Source of the DNA: an uncultured archaeon
GTDB taxonomy: Archaea; Asgardarchaeota; Lokiarchaeia; Sigyniarchaeales; SOKP01
Length of the DNA stretch: 64,000 nucleotides
NCBI GenBank assembly: GCA_964388035.1
Contig: CAYLZE010000005.1
Location: 3,742 to 67,741 of the forward strand
Direction: 5' to 3'
This document shows, piece by piece, positions 4,630 through 44,965 of the stretch (positions are counted from its first letter, which is position 1; every line of letters starts with the position of its first letter). The translations under genes and the position numbers were made by a program. The notes below the pieces were generated by a model that worked only from the letters and a program-made list of their open reading frames with translations, ran no database searches and was not told the DNA's origin.

Positions 4630-5886
4630 TTATTTAAGGCATCTTGCGATTAGTTGACTAAGATCTTCAATCTTGAGTACATTTTTATCTTCTTCAGTTA
4701 ATCCGTGGGATAATCCTAATTCACACAATGGGCATGAAGATAAAATCACTTTTGCACCTGTTTCTTTTAATTCTTCAATCCTATTCTTCGCTTCTGTTAT
4801 TGCCAATTCTCTATCAGCTAAATGTAGAGTCCCACTCCATCCACAGCAGTGAGAAGATTCTTTATTATAGAGAGGTTCAATCAAGTTAATGCCTTGCATT
4901 TTTTGAAGTATTTTTCTCATGGACGTAGTATCGTTCAAATTCCGAGCAAGAAGACAAGGATCATGGATTGTTACTTTTTTGAATTCATCGGGAATGACAT
5001 CATTAAATACTAATTTACCCTCATCAACTAATTGATTGATATAGCTTACAATATGGATTACCTTAATATCAAGATTAGCTCCCATGCTTTGATATCGCTT
5101 TGTTAAAGTTTCTACGCAACCGGGACAATCAGAAACAATTAGTTTTGCACCCGTGCTTTTTACCAACTCTTGATTCTTATTCACTAATTCTTTTACCACA
5201 TTCATATCCCGTATATTAAATGCAGGAGCACCACAACAGGCCCTCTTGTCTAAATTCGTAGAAAATTTTATGCTTGCTTTTTTCAAGATCTGGATATTAG
5301 CTTTTACAACGTCTGGAAATTTCATCATCTCACAGCCAATATAGTAAACTACTTCGTCATTTCCATCTGTTTCTATATCTTCAATGCCCTTCTCTTTATA
5401 CGTCAAAAAAATGTTGTGATCTTCGATGGTATTAGTTGTCTTTAATTTTTCGATTTGCTGCCTGCAAAAATCGGGCATGAATCCTTTTTCGTTTATATCA
5501 TCTCTAACTGTTTCAAGTAGAGAAACAACTGAAAATTCAAAAGGACACCAAATCTTGCAGTTTTCCTCATTCGTGCATTTATACATTAAATTTAAAAACT
5601 CTGGATCGTTATACTCTATTTTTCCTATCGAAAGATAATATCCAATTCTCGATTTATATGCAGGGCTCATCGTCTCTTTCTGTGCTGCTTTAAGTGTACC
5701 ACAATCAAATCTACACATATTCGGGCATAGCATGCAGTTAATTAAATTCTTAACATCTGCCTTATACTCTCCCTCGGGGTAAAAGTTTTTCTTTGTTAAG
5801 CGCATATTCTTAAATAAGACTCTTTTTACCTTTGGTAACTTATTGAGCAAGGGAAGCATCCATTTATATTTCTCTAAGATTTCCAT
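4630..5886 (-). CDS. Fe-S oxidoreductase with CCG domains (GlpC/HdrD-like)
   Basis: CxxCPNMC ferredoxin-like motif; two CCG domains (ACCG..CPGC; HDPC..HCCG..CPLC). Confidence 0.85.
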   Translation of the reverse strand: MEILEKYKWMLPLLNKLPKVKRVLFKNMRLTKKNFYPEGEYKADVKNLINCMLCPNMCRFDCGTLKAAQKETMSPAYKSRIGYYLSIGKIEYNDPEFLNLMYKCTNEENCKIWCPFEFSVVSLLETVRDDINEKGFMPDFCRQQIEKLKTTNTIEDHNIFLTYKEKGIEDIETDGNDEVVYYIGCEMMKFPDVVKANIQILKKASIKFSTNLDKRACCGAPAFNIRDMNVVKELVNKNQELVKSTGAKLIVSDCPGCVETLTKRYQSMGANLDIKVIHIVSYINQLVDEGKLVFNDVIPDEFKKVTIHDPCLLARNLNDTTSMRKILQKMQGINLIEPLYNKESSHCCGWSGTLHLADRELAITEAKNRIEELKETGAKVILSSCPLCELGLSHGLTEEDKNVLKIEDLSQLIARCLK

Positions 5887-7368
5887 CTATTTTTCACCTC
5901 CATCCTTCCATATAGCTTCATATACCTTACCGGGATTGAAGATATTATTGGGATCGAGTATTCTTTTTAATTCACGCGTTATTTTCATGCTCTTTCCCCA
6001 TTCTTCATCCATCCATTCAGCTCTATTAATGCCAATACCGTGATGATGAGCGATGGACCCACCCACTTCTAAAACAGTCTTCATGGTTGTTCTCCAAGCT
6101 TCTTTATACATTTCAAAATCGGATTTATCCTCCATTTCTACTCCCGCGAAAGAGAAGTAAATTCCCACGCCATTAGGATAGAAATGAGAAACGTGAGCGG
6201 TAATCAAAAAAATTCCTTCGATATTCTTAACTGCCTCAACCACCCTATGGTATAGTTTAGCCGCATTACTCCATGCAACAGCCACTTCTATCGTGTCTGC
6301 CAGCATTTTATTGGGTGGAATGGTACTGGTTTCTGTTACGCTAAATCTTGTTTCAAACCAATGCTCAACAGGTTCCCGCCCACAATCTACTCCTGAATTT
6401 TTTTCGCACCTGTCTCGCGTAATAGCAGCTTCAACATCAACAACTTGTTCATTTCCTTCGCAAACAAAAACCACCATTACCTTATCCTTGGCCTTTTCCA
6501 CATGTTCAAAATGCCGGGTGGTTTCATCCGCATCATAAATTCTTACAACGGCAGGATATGCTTGCTCCCTCAAGATTTGGCGAATGGCTTCCAGTGAATC
6601 TTCAAATGTCGGAAAGGCATAGGAAATCAACGCTCTCTTCTCGGGATAAGGCCATATTCGTAATGTCGCTTTAGTTACAATGCCTAAAGTTCCTTCATTT
6701 CCAATGAATAGTTTATCCAACTGAGGTCCTGTAGCAGCCCGAATAATTGGTTTAAACTTAATGAGTTCCCCTTGAGGTAGGAGTATTTCCATGCCAATTA
6801 CCATGTCTTCTATCTTCCCATATTTAGTAGAAAATTGACCTGCAGCCCGGTGAGCGATCCAACCCCCTACAGAAGATGTATAGAGGGATTGAGGGATATG
6901 ACCTCCCGTATATCCTTTTGCATTTAAATATCGTTCTAAGTTCATCCCATTAATACCCGGCTCAACGGTGACTGTTAAATCTTTGTCATTAATTTCAATG
7001 ATTTTGGTGAATTTTTTCATGTCGACGATGATACCTCCTCGAACGGGAATTGCCCCACCCACTACACCTGAACCCTCGCCATAAGGAATGACGGGAATTT
7101 TTTCTCGATTTGCCAATTTAAGGATGTTGCTAATTTGATCCGTGCTTTCTGGCCAAGTAATGAAATCCGCCCATCCCCCAATTTGGCTCTTTAATGTCCA
7201 ATTATAAGAGATTAATGACGCATCTTTAGAATAGGCTAAAAGGTCAATTTCATTGGTTGAAACATTTTTTTCTCCTAAAATGTCAATCAATTCTGCTTTT
7301 ATCTTGTCTTTATCTTTAATAACAACTCGATCTTCCTTATAAATCAATTCAAAATTTGATAATTTCAT
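5887..7368 (-). CDS. FAD-linked oxidase, alkyl-dihydroxyacetonephosphate synthase/GlcD family
   Basis: PYGEGSGVVGG, GHIPQSLYTSSVGGW, GNEGTLG, HHHGIG, LDPNNIFNPGK. Confidence 0.85.
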   Translation of the reverse strand: MKLSNFELIYKEDRVVIKDKDKIKAELIDILGEKNVSTNEIDLLAYSKDASLISYNWTLKSQIGGWADFITWPESTDQISNILKLANREKIPVIPYGEGSGVVGGAIPVRGGIIVDMKKFTKIIEINDKDLTVTVEPGINGMNLERYLNAKGYTGGHIPQSLYTSSVGGWIAHRAAGQFSTKYGKIEDMVIGMEILLPQGELIKFKPIIRAATGPQLDKLFIGNEGTLGIVTKATLRIWPYPEKRALISYAFPTFEDSLEAIRQILREQAYPAVVRIYDADETTRHFEHVEKAKDKVMVVFVCEGNEQVVDVEAAITRDRCEKNSGVDCGREPVEHWFETRFSVTETSTIPPNKMLADTIEVAVAWSNAAKLYHRVVEAVKNIEGIFLITAHVSHFYPNGVGIYFSFAGVEMEDKSDFEMYKEAWRTTMKTVLEVGGSIAHHHGIGINRAEWMDEEWGKSMKITRELKRILDPNNIFNPGKVYEAIWKDGGEK

Positions 7369-39044: not shown

Positions 39045-40254
39045 ATGGCTGAAGAAGAAAGCTTTTTAAGTGCAAAAGCATTAGTGGTTGACAACGGTAC
39101 AGGAATCTCTAAAAACGGATTTGCTGGTGAGGACCAACCCCGTTCCGTGTTTCCAACTTTAATCGGGTACCCCAAATATGAAAGTATAATGACTGATGTC
39201 GAGCATTATACGAGAGAATACTATATCGGGGAAGAAGCAATGCAACTCAAGGGTGTATTGAAATTAATGTTCCCCGTAGAACACGGAATCATAGAAGATT
39301 GGACTGCCATGGAAAAAATATGGCACTACACCTTTTATACGGATTTGAGAATTGATCCCAGCGAACATCCCGTTCTCTTAACCGAAGCCCCCTTAAATCC
39401 ACGACCAAACAGAGAGAAAATGGCAGAAATCATGTTCGAAACTTTCAACGTGCCCGCGCTTTATGTTGCCATGCAAGCAGTTCTTTCCCTTTACGCGTCT
39501 GGTAGAACCACCGGATGTGTTATTGATATTGGCGACGGAGTGTCTCACGTTGTACCTATTTTTGAAGGTTTTGCGTTGAGCCATGCAATTCAGAGAATTG
39601 ATTTAGCCGGCAGAGATATTACCACTTATCTCCAACGTCTTTTACGACAAAAAGGTCATTCCTTTACGACTTCTGCGGAAAAAGAAATTGTTCGAGATAT
39701 CAAGGAAAAACTCTGCTACGTGGCCATCGATCCTGAAAAAGAAATGATGCTCTCCAAAAAAGTGGCGGGCATGGAAAAGAGCTACATGCTTCCTGACGGT
39801 GAAACCATTAATGTAGGTGTCGAACGATTTTTAGCTCCTGAATGCTTCTTTAATCCTTCCGTCATTGGAAAGGAATTGGAACCATTAGACGATGTCGTCG
39901 TAGGAGCAATTTCCGAGTGCGATGTTGACTTGAGAAGAGATTTATACAGCAACATTGTACTCTCTGGTGGATCTACCATGTTCCCCGGAATAAAGGAACG
40001 TTTGACTAAAGAAATAAAAGAACAGATCCCCGAATCAGTAGATGTAAAAATAATCGCACCTCCCGAAAGAATGTATTCCGTTTGGATCGGCGGCTCAATC
40101 TTGTCGTCTCTTAAAACCTTCCACCGAATGTGGGTCACTAGACGCGAAACCGAAAGAGATCAAAGAATCTCTCGGCGCGAGTACAAAGAAATGGGCCCAC
40201 AAGTAAAGAGAATCGAAAGAGATTCGATTTCGCTTAATTCATCGCTGCTTTTAA
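39045..40254 (+). CDS. Lokiactin (Asgard actin), three exons: 39045-40148, 40182-40206, 40238-40254; spliced product 381 aa
   Basis: Actin motifs throughout ([35 protein letters not shown]). Removing the two inserts yields ...[19 protein letters not shown], aligning with the eukaryotic actin C-terminus. Confidence 0.93.
40149..40181 (+). other. Predicted BHB/BHL mRNA intron 1 of actin (33 nt, in frame)
   Basis: CGCG/CGCG helix, bulge AA|A, intron stem CCGA..GAGAU/AUCUC.UCGG, 3' site AG|U. Confidence 0.8.
40207..40237 (+). other. Predicted BHB-like mRNA intron 2 of actin (31 nt, frameshifting)
   Basis: AAGU/GCUU helix, bulge AA|A, intron stem AAUCGAA/UUCGAUU, 3' site AA|U. Confidence 0.82.
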
Positions 40255-40285
40255 GCACGATGCGGGCCCTTCAAATCGCGAATTA

Positions 40286-40330
40286 ATTTTTTTTTAATTA
40301 TTTAAATTTTTTTTATATTTTTATATTTTA
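40286..40330 (+). terminator. Oligo-T archaeal terminator after actin
   Basis: Several T runs (up to 9 nt) immediately downstream. Confidence 0.55.
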
Positions 40331-40852
40331 CCCATAAATTAATTGATCAAATCAAGTTCAGTCTATTTTTCAATAGCAATTAAGAATAAATTATTTTATG
40401 TACGAAAATTTCTAAAAAAAATATTATTATTTAGATTGAGGATAGTTTTTTTGTTATCAAAAAAAGGTTTTTTGTGCTAATAATCTATGAAAAAATTCAA
40501 TAAGAAGCTTGCTTTTGTCCTTTTTTTTTATAAAAAATGGTTATTGTAGAGCGCTTGAATAAGTATCAATTAATCTTAACACTTTAGGATTTAATATTTT
40601 TATTATGAAAATTGAATTCTTGAGGTACATTCGCATAATATTCTCAATTTATGAAGTTTAAAATTCAAAATAAGAAGTATATGGTGTCTTTTAGCAAGAT
40701 CAAGTTCAAGGGCACATATAGTATTACCCAAAAGAAAAATTCCCAATGAAGTACCAAATTACTATTCCGATCCTAAAAAAAGTCGGAAAGAAGTCAAAAA
40801 AATAGGAGAAAAAAAAAAGGAGAATGACGGAACCATTTTTTCTGTTAGCAGT

Positions 40853-41157
40853 GAAGAGCAGGGCAAAGAACTTCCCAAGCAGAAGGAAAAGAACTTAAAA
40901 TTCCTGACGAAAGAACAGGGCAAAGAACTTCTCAAGCAGAAGGAGAAAAACTTAAAATTCCTAACGGAAGAGCAGGGCAAAGAACTTCTCAAGCAGAAAA
41001 GGGAGATTTTAAAATTCCTAACGGAAGAGCAGGGCAAAGAACTTCTCAGGCAGAAGAGGGAGATTTTAAAATTCTTGACGGAAGAGCAGGGCAAAGAACT
41101 TCTCAAGCAGAAAAGGGAGATTTTAAAATTCTTGACGGAAGAGCAAGGAAAGGAACC
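40853..41157 (+). repeat. 57-bp coding tandem repeat, 5 full units plus a partial (EEQGKELLKQKREILKFLT)
   Basis: GAAGAGCAGGGCAAAGAACTT (or variant) recurs at 40853, 40910, 40967, 41024, 41081, 41138. Confidence 0.92.
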
Positions 41158-42835
41158 CATCGAGCAGAAAAAGGAAGTAAGAAAAAAAGAGTTTGATTTT
41201 CCTATGAAAGAGCAAGTAGAAAAACGAATGAAAGAGAAAAAAGCATCCATTTTACCAGCTAAAGAAAGCGAGATCAAAAGACAAAACAATTTGGATATTT
41301 TTGAAACGGAAAATAGGAAGATTATACTTAAAGAAAAAGCTCGAGAGCTAGAAAACTCAGTAGGGATTGGCAAAGACTTGAAAGAACGAGATCGGTTAAA
41401 AAGAGAGCAAAATTTAGATGAGCTTTCAAAAGGAAAGATTAATGAAAAAGATATAAAACAAAATAAAAAAGAAGTAATTAAAAACCACAAAGAAGGATAT
41501 TATTATGAAAAAGAGTCGATCCTAAAAGTAAAAGAGAATCCATCTAAGCTTAAACCTAAAGAGCAGATAGAGATTCAACATAATCAAAAAAATACACTTG
41601 AATTTAATACTAAAGAGAAAGGACAGGAAAAGCAAAAGAAGGTGATTAAAGAGCAAGAAAAAGAAGAGACCGAAAATAATGCAATTAAATTATTTGAGGA
41701 TTTACGAAAGGAACTCGGCATTTTAAAGGGAGAGCCTAAAACAATATCTGATCCCAATTTAAGTAAAAGTTTGGGACGGGCTCCCAGCTATGTAATGACG
41801 AAAAAGGCACAAATTAAAGAAAATCCTAAATTTCAACTTTCCTTAAAGGAACTATCAGGATTTCAAGAACACTTGAATTTGAAGTATGGAAAGTTAGCCA
41901 GTCGATGTTCTGAGATAATCGAAAAGTATAAAGTAGCTAATCCAGACTTAAAAGAATATGCTCATGAGCAACATGAGGTTAGTAAGCCCCATTTTTTTTC
42001 TAAAGAAAACATGTTATCTAATACACCAGAAGGGAATAATGCATGCTATTTTTACGGATTTCTCCATGCAGATGGTTATAGAAAAGGTAGGTACGTAATA
42101 GGCAGTAGGATTCATCCGCATGATAAATTAGTTTTAGAAAAAATATGTGACGCGATTGGTATTGATCGAGAGAAAATAAAAGTTAGTGAAAACGTAGCGC
42201 AGTTAGAGTTCAAGTGTAAACCAATGCACGCCGACTTAAAAGAGGTTAAGGAGTATTGCATTCCTAACTTTTTAAGACCAAATAGAAAGAAAGTGCTGCG
42301 TTGGCTTCATGGTTTCTATGATGGAGATGGTACACAAGGTCGGACAAATTTTGGATCAGCACATAAAGAAATCTTGATTGATGTTAAGAAGTATTTCGGA
42401 ATAGAAAATGAAGTTTTAAAAACTCTGGAGAAATATACTTATGTCGATAAAGCTGGAAAAACACATGTTAGAAATGAATATTGGACATTAAGCATTGGTC
42501 CAAAGATATTTAATGAAATGCTGCTTTCTAATCCTTCTGGTGGATTACCTAGAAAATATTCTTTCAAGCAGGAGAAAGATGAATCATATAAAAGGTTAAA
42601 AAGAAATGTTGTTATTTTTGAGAAAAGACTCGGAATGCCACTTCAAGAAGCCCTATATAAATATCGGGTTAGCCAATTTAGGGAAATGTTAGGATCGAGG
42701 TCTACATCATTGCATAGGTTAATTACAGAACGAAAGTTAGAACTACCCCCTAAATCATATTGGAAGGATAAACCTACAATTTGGCCAAACAATGAAGTTT
42801 ATAAAGATTTAAAGGATAAACCATTACATGAATAA
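41075..42835 (+). CDS. Free-standing double-motif LAGLIDADG homing-endonuclease-like protein with low-complexity K/E-rich N-terminus (true start probably upstream, ~40680)
   Basis: YFYGFLHADG and WLHGFYDGDG motifs about 85 aa apart; frame open from 40655. Confidence 0.75.
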   Translation: MTEEQGKELLKQKREILKFLTEEQGKEPIEQKKEVRKKEFDFPMKEQVEKRMKEKKASILPAKESEIKRQNNLDIFETENRKIILKEKARELENSVGIGKDLKERDRLKREQNLDELSKGKINEKDIKQNKKEVIKNHKEGYYYEKESILKVKENPSKLKPKEQIEIQHNQKNTLEFNTKEKGQEKQKKVIKEQEKEETENNAIKLFEDLRKELGILKGEPKTISDPNLSKSLGRAPSYVMTKKAQIKENPKFQLSLKELSGFQEHLNLKYGKLASRCSEIIEKYKVANPDLKEYAHEQHEVSKPHFFSKENMLSNTPEGNNACYFYGFLHADGYRKGRYVIGSRIHPHDKLVLEKICDAIGIDREKIKVSENVAQLEFKCKPMHADLKEVKEYCIPNFLRPNRKKVLRWLHGFYDGDGTQGRTNFGSAHKEILIDVKKYFGIENEVLKTLEKYTYVDKAGKTHVRNEYWTLSIGPKIFNEMLLSNPSGGLPRKYSFKQEKDESYKRLKRNVVIFEKRLGMPLQEALYKYRVSQFREMLGSRSTSLHRLITERKLELPPKSYWKDKPTIWPNNEVYKDLKDKPLHE

Positions 42836-43093: not shown

Positions 43094-44170
43094 ATGTGTT
43101 TACGATTAACTGACGAGAATCCCCTCATAATTGTCGGGGAGAAGACAAACAAATCCAAGTATGATTTCTTGCGGGGCTTTTATCCCAGCTGGAATAAAAT
43201 TGTGAAGACAAGGGAGCGCGTGATTATTGATACCCATGCGGGAACCGGGATGGTGGAACTCCAAAGTTCCAAAGACATTTTAGGCGTTCAAAGCAAGAGA
43301 AAGATGTATGGCTCACCATTGCTTGCGATAATAAAGACGCTTACGATTTCCAATAGATTGACAATAATACTCAATGAAGCAAATCTGGATATCTTTTCGA
43401 CATTAAAGAGTCATGTGGATACTTTTGTACAAGAGGGAGTTCCAGTTTTTCGTAAGATAGAAAGCGATTTTAAATATAGATCTCTCGAGACTAAAAGACA
43501 AAGACGTCAAAAGAAGAAAGCAAAATATACTTTTCCCGATTTTCCAGATTGCAAACCAGAGTCAGGATATGAAACCTATTATCTTTTTACAAAAGCTAAC
43601 GTCCAATGTATTAATAATAAAATTGAGAGGAGTATTGATCACATTTTATCTGAATTCTTGAAAGAAGGGGGAAAAGAATCTTCACAATTAAAACCTATTG
43701 CATTATTTTTTGTAGATCCATGTGGCGCTGTGGGCTGGAATAAAGTGATCCATAAAATATGTATGCGTTCTAATAATTCAGAAGGAACTGAACTTATATT
43801 GAATTGGTCTTGGGAGGCAATTCATAGAAATCTTACCACCCAATCAAAAGAAAAAGTGTTAAACAAAATCTATGGAATTCCACGTGAAAAAATTGCGGAA
43901 GAATTTAAAGGCATTAATACAATGGAAGATTATCTTAAGAAATATATAACCCAACTCATGCAGTATTTTAAATATGTCAAGGAGATTGGTGTACCAAAGG
44001 ATAGAAAAGTAAAGCCTAAGCCTTCAAAGCATAAGAAGTATTATTTGCTAATTTGTACAAACAACAAGAGTGCTCTTTCTCTAGCAGGATATCGTATTAA
44101 CAAAGTTAAAGAGGCGCTGAGAAGTCCATTCGTAGATATTGTTAAATTTGCCAAATCTTTGAAAAATTGA
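43094..44170 (+). CDS. Three-Cys-motif partner protein TcmP (SAM-methyltransferase-like)
   Basis: K..FL..FY..W, IDTHAGTG, GSPLLAI, FFVDPCG, YYLL motifs. Confidence 0.7.
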   Translation: MCLRLTDENPLIIVGEKTNKSKYDFLRGFYPSWNKIVKTRERVIIDTHAGTGMVELQSSKDILGVQSKRKMYGSPLLAIIKTLTISNRLTIILNEANLDIFSTLKSHVDTFVQEGVPVFRKIESDFKYRSLETKRQRRQKKKAKYTFPDFPDCKPESGYETYYLFTKANVQCINNKIERSIDHILSEFLKEGGKESSQLKPIALFFVDPCGAVGWNKVIHKICMRSNNSEGTELILNWSWEAIHRNLTTQSKEKVLNKIYGIPREKIAEEFKGINTMEDYLKKYITQLMQYFKYVKEIGVPKDRKVKPKPSKHKKYYLLICTNNKSALSLAGYRINKVKEALRSPFVDIVKFAKSLKN

Positions 44171-44197
44171 GTAATTAACTATTATGAAAAACCAAGC

Positions 44198-44965
44198 TTA
44201 TTTTCGATAAACATAATTGATTATACTATCTTTAATTCGAATATTTTCGCCTTGCTCCCGAGCTTTTTCCAAGATGGAAATTAAATTCATCTTGGTATTA
44301 ATTTCTTTAATCGCATTGTAATAAGGTCTTTCATTAGATAATATCCCTTGAGAACGAATATAATTCATCTTCCCGATCCAAATTGATTCTGTAACATAGC
44401 TTTGTAGTTTTTCAACTAATTGAAATGGATTTTTATCTAAAAATGGCTCTATAGAAATACTTGTCTTAAAACCATTATTAAACGCAATTTGAAGGGCATT
44501 GAGTCTATCTTCGAAAGACGGAGCTCCTGGTTCCCAAAATTTTAAAAGATCATTCTGGTATGAGGTTATGGTGAATCGGAATTGAATAAATTTCTTAAAA
44601 GACGTAAAAGTTTCGCATATAGTTTTAATACATTGAGGGTGTGGTTTAGAAGTAATAAGAGCTTCATTTCCTGCAGTTAGTAATTTTTTTATAACGAAGA
44701 CGCATTGATCTAAAGTTTCTTCCGTAATGTCGTGAGATGTGGGGAACATCACCCTACCTTTGCGCTTACCATACCCTTTATTGATTTGTTGTATGTTAGG
44801 TTCCATTATCTTCCAAGTGTCCTCAGTTTTTCGCTTGAACCTAAGGGCCATCTTTTTCGCATAACAATAACGGCAATTGTTTGAACATCCATAATAAATA
44901 TTAACGTTGCTATCCGCCCATTCTTTCGTGCCTAACGTGATTTTTTGGGATTTGCTTTCAGTCAT
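44198..44965 (-). CDS. Radical SAM protein (DUF5131/SplB-like three-Cys motif)
   Basis: GCSNNCRYCYA, EPGAPS, SIEP; adjacent to TcmP. Confidence 0.75.
   Translation of the reverse strand: MTESKSQKITLGTKEWADSNVNIYYGCSNNCRYCYAKKMALRFKRKTEDTWKIMEPNIQQINKGYGKRKGRVMFPTSHDITEETLDQCVFVIKKLLTAGNEALITSKPHPQCIKTICETFTSFKKFIQFRFTITSYQNDLLKFWEPGAPSFEDRLNALQIAFNNGFKTSISIEPFLDKNPFQLVEKLQSYVTESIWIGKMNYIRSQGILSNERPYYNAIKEINTKMNLISILEKAREQGENIRIKDSIINYVYRK

Follow-up and report, generated by a model that had tools for sequence, protein, structure and literature searches.

Two short inserts around a 25-nt micro-exon in the Lokiactin gene of an Asgard archaeon are very probably tRNA-type introns

In Crenarchaeota, the pre-mRNA of cbf5 carries a tRNA-type (BHB) intron within its coding sequence (Watanabe 2002; Yoshinari 2006; Yokobori 2009, PMC2738675), often with a relaxed motif that is cut by a hetero-oligomeric tRNA splicing endonuclease (EndA; PMC2738675). 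Introns predicted in other protein genes were unconfirmed as of 2009 (PMC2738675), and a 2020 paper counts no archaeal coding sequence besides cbf5 as carrying a BHB intron, while describing a circular 46-nt BHB intron in the 5' UTR of HVO_1309 of Haloferax volcanii (PMC7714728). Asgard archaea are known for non-canonical introns in their tRNAs, with a median length of 22-23 nt (PMC11291895; bioRxiv 10.64898/2026.10.13.758758), and the 2026 preprint on these introns never mentions mRNA (bioRxiv 10.64898/2026.10.13.758758).

Here we describe a Lokiactin gene, located in a 64,000-nt stretch of Lokiarchaeia DNA (the window), whose 3' end contains two inserts shaped like such introns. Its resemblance to cbf5 lies in short introns within the coding sequence, in relaxed BHB motifs with cuts between the second and third bulge bases, in a hetero-oligomeric EndA, and in gain and loss among relatives. 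The single intron of cbf5 occupies a conserved position in the gene for an RNA-modifying enzyme, and its splicing has been demonstrated by experiment. The actin gene, which is cytoskeletal and from a different phylum, has two introns flanking a 25-nt exon; we infer their splicing from the sequence, and similar inserts are found at about ten positions across Asgard actins and in several other genes of the same genome. As in HVO_1309, a small BHB intron would make an mRNA a substrate of the tRNA splicing endonuclease; the HVO_1309 intron, however, lies outside the coding sequence and leaves the reading frame independent of splicing, whereas the actin introns lie inside it. The Asgard tRNA introns have the phylum, a similar size, repeated independent gains, BHB boundaries and two EndA paralogs in common with the actin inserts, but interrupt tRNA genes; the actin inserts measure 28-34 nt. 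In the literature searched, with subscription journals mostly outside its coverage, the Asgard introns described are tRNA or group II introns, and neither Asgard mRNA introns nor a Lokiactin with an intron is reported. The mechanism is already known; new relative to the papers searched are its occurrence in this phylum and in a cytoskeletal gene, the arrangement of two introns around a micro-exon, and how many genes are affected.

The ORF starting at 39045 matches Pfam Actin (E=1.7e-127), and residues 1-366 of its product are 98-99% identical to those of 80 Promethearchaeota loci. Read straight through, the frame stays open to 40286 and yields 413 aa with a foreign tail, the form in which the protein has been entered in the protein collection. 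When all pairs of 20-44-nt deletions in the window actin were scored by recovery of the conserved tail, 33 + 31 nt was the sole pair of lengths that gave it back. An identical protein results from twelve registers of intron 1 and from four of intron 2, the BHB registers among them, and it is the BHB cut rule that selects the coordinates in Table 1 from these equivalents. The resulting 381-aa protein shares 377 of its 381 residues with that of the intron-less relative L006 and has the marks of a Lokiactin, being full-length after splicing, near-identical to Lokiarchaeia orthologs and terminated by HRCF. Both the split of the gene by two inserts and the 381-aa product after BHB-rule removal of 33 and 31 nt had been proposed in an initial annotation of this DNA, as had the micro-exon between them, and all three are borne out. 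The alignment to intron-less alleles that it had suggested as a check finds the restored tail, ending in HRCF, to be exact in 77 of the 81 loci examined; one of the remaining four has a single-residue change in its tail and the other three are insert carriers (the window, L005 and L023).

Within the genome assembly to which the window belongs (G000; metagenome-derived, 96.7% complete, 7% contamination), this gene is the sole Lokiactin, the three other actin-family genes being 29-38% identical, and a search for a second copy of the actin tail throughout the assembly found none. Over 39045-40148, the protein is 98-100% identical family-wide and the DNA only ~82% identical to its nearest relatives, which indicates extreme purifying selection on Lokiactin. 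The closest solved structure to the intron-less relative P0001 is that of the Asgard HC1 actin (9wc4). Elsewhere in the family, G235 has a tandem actin pair (C48:2620-3762 and 5381-6490) that is 99% and 94% identical to the reference, and G022 has a second, broken actin-like gene (L157, C205:1661-2719), whose 3' part is gapped and interrupted by several stops.

Table 1. Coordinates of the interrupted actin gene and its predicted RNA elements in the window, of the downstream ORF, and of candidate introns elsewhere in G000 (contig:positions). Arrows mark predicted cuts.
Feature	Location	Strand	Remark
Lokiactin exon 1, codons 1-368	39045-40148	+	Pfam Actin; similarity to Promethearchaeota actins
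Intron 1 central helix, exon strand CGCG (40143-40146), and 5' bulge AA↓A (40147-40149)	40143-40149	+	Helix pairs covary over 7 site-1 alleles
Intron 1, 33 nt, in frame, stop-free	40149-40181	+	Other 30-32-nt inserts at same junction
Intron 1 inner hairpin	40150-40175	+	
Intron 1 central helix, intron strand	40176-40179	+	
Intron 1 3' bulge AG↓U	40180-40182	+	
Exon 2, 25-nt micro-exon	40182-40206	+	Peptide invariant among relatives
GGGCCC in exon 2	40193-40198	+	
Intron 2 central helix, exon strand AAGU, in exon 2	40201-40204	+	
Intron 2, 31 nt, frameshifting	40207-40237	+	Homologous-looking 31-nt insert at same junction in L023 (G013)
Intron 2 inner hairpin	40208-40231	+	
Intron 2 central helix, intron strand GCUU	40232-40235	+	
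Intron 2 3' bulge AA↓U	40236-40238	+	
Exon 3, finishes Ile, then HRCF and stop	40238-40254	+	Only copy in assembly
3' UTR predicted to pair back	40255-40280	+	Predicted by folding; compared to 86 intron-less alleles
3' UTR segment predicted to pair with exon 3	40255-40262	+	
3' UTR GGGCCC, predicted to pair with exon 2	40264-40269	+	Distal closing helix, intron 2
3' UTR UCGCG, predicted to pair with intron 1 helix CGCG	40276-40280	+	
586-aa ORF, N-terminal repeats, two LAGLIDADG-like motifs	41075-42835	+	Open frame from ~40655
Candidate BHB mRNA intron	C149:3761-3790	-	
Candidate BHB mRNA intron	C32:9825-9854	-	
Candidate BHB mRNA intron	C45:19136-19165		
Candidate BHB mRNA intron	C47:27882-27911	-	
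Candidate BHB mRNA intron	C50:19070-19098		
Candidate BHB mRNA intron	C55:21570-21601		
Candidate BHB mRNA intron	C63:5704-5733		
Candidate BHB mRNA intron	C66:9415-9446		

Both inserts have the features expected of EndA introns, namely a 4-bp central helix, a 3-nt 5' bulge followed by an intron stem (h'), and predicted cuts after the second bulge base that restore the product. The central helix of intron 1 (CGCG/CGCG) consists of four Watson-Crick pairs and that of intron 2 (AAGU/GCUU) of three plus one GU pair; in each, the 5' bulge AA↓A leads into a four-pair h', and the 3' bulges read AG↓U and AA↓U, respectively. In intron-less actin genes, a test for BHB-type geometry was passed by 62 of 97,006 position/length pairs (0.064%), and by none of 20,000 shuffled versions of intron 1 and five of 20,000 of intron 2. 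Directly closing the 3' bulge, not one adjacent pair of an exon-exon helix was found for either intron, and the motifs are therefore of the relaxed HBh'/BHL type rather than canonical hBHBh'. The 4-bp helices and 3-nt bulges claimed at the outset stand, as relaxed motifs. The 10-nt word CGAAAGAGAT is common to both intron hairpins (window 40150-40160 and 40214-40223), and 10-nt sharing between shuffled introns arose in 0.045% of trials; one intron may have served as a partial template for the other. Elsewhere in G000 neither intron has a copy, so no recent spread within the genome is visible.

A gapped pattern search combined with genome searches recovered further inserts in relatives. Exactly at the junction of intron 1 (site 1) there are six other distinct inserts of 30-32 nt (L005, L085/L089, L086, L087, L088 and L150), and at the junction of intron 2 (site 2) there is one of 31 nt, in L023 from another genus. 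Over the seven distinct site-1 inserts, 82.6% of cells are paired, versus 66.8% after shuffling (0/500) and 33-49% with slid partners. Compensatory changes occur at seven of ten pairs, including all six stem pairs, and within the central helix, where 92.9% of cells are paired across the seven alleles, the pair holding the Arg wobble base changes on both sides; as these are only seven sequences and the structure was read from the same set, the covariation is supportive rather than proof. In L005, L023 and L150 the central helix has only three of its four pairs. At other actin positions, eight more inserts that share this geometry and measure 28-34 nt occur across Asgard archaea, at codons ~87 (G022, with in-frame stops) and ~361 (G182) and at codons 48, 54, 341, 345, 348 and 362 in other Asgard families, which brings the total to 17 inserts of 28-34 nt with BHB-like geometry at ~10 positions. 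All 17 begin with A and have an A two bases before their end, a feature that was not used in choosing the registers. For non-palindromic exon 4-mers, the end of the intron is the reverse complement and not a repeat of the 4-mer (CGUG/CACG, AAGU/GCUU), which argues for RNA pairing and against target-site duplication or ribosomal bypass.

Several observations on individual relatives accompany this survey. The G182 actin (L150/L178, C2 ~177000-177100) has two introns of 31 and 30 nt flanking a 22-nt exon, and a near-repeat of its last codons and stop follows right after its stop codon; its sisters G006 and G181 have neither introns nor near-repeat. In G303, a closed 1.42-Mb Asgard genome (one contig of 1,418,269 bp), actin codon ~345 is the site of a canonical BHB intron of 34 nt that includes a 5-bp exon helix (L123:2546-2600), and the called ORF is 386 aa long and ends in a foreign tail. 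In relatives, actin matches that break off early mostly reflected contig ends and not introns, and two further pattern matches at site 2 (G116 and G359) look like chance.

The genome also encodes the proteins that such introns would need. G000 has a full-length RtcB on C23 (E=9e-166) and two EndA paralogs on C146 and C33, one of which has the catalytic Tyr, His and Lys, finds its best match in Aeropyrum EndA (E=1e-35), and contains a KPR-bearing loop that aligns to the Crenarchaea-specific loop (CSL) of that enzyme; the second paralog is without the catalytic His. The CSL has been tied to the cutting of relaxed motifs (PMC12397907), and from these sequences we infer that a two-subunit EndA of G000 could cut them as well. 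ARAGORN reported 22 tRNAs in G000, 15 of them intron-bearing and several with implausible anticodons (Pyl, Stop), a set that would fit hidden tRNAs with several introns, which are on record for Asgard archaea; the program performs poorly on such tRNAs, several were mis-assigned, and tRNA intron numbers are left out here.

Taken together, different sequences at the same junctions, covarying helices, an invariant protein, a single tail, and a genome that encodes EndA and RtcB make us highly confident that the two inserts are real EndA/RtcB-type introns in the actin mRNA, as the initial annotation had it. The missing exon helix, the three-pair central helices of L005, L023 and L150 and the low predicted probability of the intron 1 helix in the full precursor speak against it. 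That EndA would cut each motif after the second bulge base, with RtcB joining the three exons, is very likely too. In the proposed pathway, folding of the transcript would bring the 3' end of each insert into a helix with four exon bases, on top of the intron hairpin. The two-subunit EndA would cleave after the second base of each bulge, and RtcB would ligate exon 1 to the 25-nt exon 2 and the latter to exon 3, probably also circularising the released 33- and 31-nt pieces. Splicing had further been called obligatory. This holds for intron 2, whose retention would leave 402 or 413 aa with IHRCF replaced by a foreign tail, but removal of intron 1 is likely rather than strictly required, as this intron is in frame and stop-free and its retention alone would give 392 aa with an in-frame 11-residue insertion.

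Pairing between distant segments (exon 1 with exon 2, and exon 2 with the 3' UTR) probably takes the place of the missing exon helix. In site-1 carriers, folding predicts that exons 1 and 2 pair with each other around the intron. In the two site-2 carriers it predicts pairing of exon 2 with the 3' UTR at -16.5 and -10.5 kcal/mol; the median for 86 intron-less alleles is -5.3. A preference of carriers for codons that complete the exon 1/exon 2 helix is suggested by counts of 4/7 versus 13/87, a small sample. Among the 86 intron-less alleles, the strongest exon-2/3' UTR pairing is that of the G001 actin (L180:4243-4640), from the same genus, which also keeps the exon-3 hairpin.

On a DNA tree of 102 actin genes the carriers are scattered, and several have well-supported intron-less sisters, the same-genus G001 among them. 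Site 1 requires seven changes on this tree (mean 7.8 for shuffled labels), or one gain and 12 losses, and since third codon positions are near saturation, gain and loss are not separable. Because most relatives, including the same-genus genome, are without introns and the products of intron retention are unconserved, the introns are most likely tolerated parasites that have been repeatedly gained and lost at few sites, rather than a conserved control device.

How such parasites might spread is suggested by the 586-aa ORF downstream. Two LAGLIDADG-like motifs were recognised in it by eye; the ORF itself has no Pfam or NCBIfam match, three of its homologs match PF14528 above cut-off, and by sequence it is possibly a free-standing homing endonuclease. 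Tandem 18-residue repeats mark its start (window 40840-41140), with the frame open for ~140 codons upstream of the listed TTG start. In collaborative homing, a free-standing nuclease, F-CphI, acts with an ORF-less psbA intron of cyanophage S-PM2, and there too a nuclease gene lies beside an intron-interrupted host gene. The psbA intron is, however, a self-splicing group I intron whose homing has been shown, whereas the actin case concerns a ~30-nt protein-spliced intron, two genomes and one remnant.

It is possible, though on balance doubtful, that the actin introns spread in this way, with the LAGLIDADG-like nuclease cutting intron-less actin 3' ends, the mini-intron protecting the allele and both being copied. 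The nuclease family is present in 68 of 135 family genomes and, among the copies listed for these, adjoins actin in no genomes but G000 and G013, which are also the only carriers at site 2. In G013 it lies just behind actin, a piece of it being 75% identical in DNA over 87 nt, and the two site-2 introns are alike over 67% of their interior despite hosts that are distant on the tree. Behind the intron-less actin of G001 there is a decayed LAGLIDADG-like remnant, which fits intron loss after decay of the nuclease, the exon-2/3' UTR pairing having been retained, and the many changes or losses needed at site 1 would also suit spread by homing. Yet the association counts two cases with opposite gene orientations, tblastn and tblastx beside six other carriers found no such gene, and the four best homologs lie in unrelated places. 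No displaced actin tail was found behind the nuclease-like gene, leaving a 3'-end-replacement model unsupported here, and third codon positions give no clear co-conversion signal. Beyond the nuclease-like ORF, window 43094-44965 holds a convergent gene pair, made up of a 358-aa ORF with methyltransferase-like motifs and no Pfam match, and a radical-SAM/DUF5131 gene; gene order in G001 differs at the matching region.

The predicted folds also bear on whether removal of the introns is ordered or regulated, with the 3' UTR competing for the intron 1 helix and retention yielding the alternative actins described above. In the full-length precursor the central helix of intron 1 has a predicted probability of only ~0.09, because the 3' UTR competes for it, while folding of the local region by itself does produce the helix; this is a caveat for the intron reading and, in this model, possibly an ordering device, which the in-frame character of intron 1 in the window would suit. 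The 31-32-nt site-1 inserts of relatives, however, all shift the frame into unrelated tails, the 30-nt insert of L150 alone being in frame as well, the competing UTR segment is not seen in the folds of other carriers, most relatives are free of introns, and the energy differences are small. We consider ordered or regulated removal very unlikely.

Plain read-through, with the 413-aa product being made, or a decaying pseudogene would agree with what gene callers have deposited and with the open unspliced frame. The actin body is nevertheless 99% identical to its relatives, exon 3, although out of frame, encodes HRCF and a stop in every carrier examined, the read-through tails of the carriers are entirely dissimilar, and the gene is the only Lokiactin in a nearly complete assembly, which makes either of these very improbable.

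Translational bypass, in which the ribosome would skip the inserts as in T4 gene 60 or the yeast mitochondrial byps, is an extremely unlikely account. Bypass elements have matching take-off and landing codons and a stop or unused codon after take-off. The actin inserts are hairpins of similar size, and Glu codons flank site 1 on both sides in the window and most relatives, but site 2 has no matching landing codon (GTA versus TTA in the window, GTA versus TGA in L023), in L005 and L087 the landing codon would be one for Asp, and take-off at site 1 is followed by a sense codon; the inserts thus do not have the marks of a programmed bypass element, which would also leave the reverse-complement 4-bp helices with their 3-nt bulges unexplained.

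Parts of the stretch occur in 21 sequencing runs, of which one is an RNA run (share 0.06); its contigs are relatives' fragments only and contain no spliced joint. Contigs of four runs together likewise gave no joint and left the intron region almost uncovered, which speaks neither for nor against splicing. A DNA contig of run X1, possibly the source sample, equals 40230-40400 without difference, which confirms the last 8 nt of intron 2 as joined to exon 3. The chance of an assembly artefact appears negligible: the assembly is metagenomic and 7% contaminated and none of the contigs of four runs spans the whole intron region, but independent assemblies have different inserts at the same junctions and the X1 contig is an exact match.

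Similar elements were sought throughout G000. A loose motif scan returned 69 loci against 65-76 in slid controls, and with no excess over controls no genome-wide intron count is given. A strict filter, defined after the actin introns were known and compared with controls that may contain real introns, returned nine frame-breaking loci of 29-32 nt versus 1-6 in the controls. One of the nine, C76, looks false; the other eight (L169-L176; Table 1), each 29-32 nt long and stop-carrying or frameshifting, look like real mRNA introns. For six of the eight, paralogs align across the junction, in four cases gap-free, and several of the candidates break recognisable motifs, in genes that by these motifs are nadE, lsrF, a zinc dehydrogenase, a CinA-like gene and a roadblock gene. 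With several interrupted genes in G000, actin would not be the only interrupted mRNA. Tentatively, and we hold this to be well short of probable, Asgard archaea could practise genome-wide protein-catalysed mRNA splicing of mobile ~30-nt BHB introns, carried at the actin 3' end by a LAGLIDADG nuclease that cuts intron-less alleles, such that selfish spread would have made a core cytoskeletal gene multi-exonic and dependent on EndA and RtcB.

Databases carry the wrong protein for such genes, as with the deposited 413-aa read-through form, and structural or cell-biological work on affected Asgard genomes may therefore use wrong C-termini or miss genes. The actin case recalls non-spliceosomal mRNA splicing in eukaryotes, that of HAC1/XBP1. 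If the introns are real, the closest prokaryotic relatives of eukaryotes would routinely splice mRNAs with their tRNA machinery, which is relevant to how early, ahead of the spliceosome, protein genes could tolerate introns.
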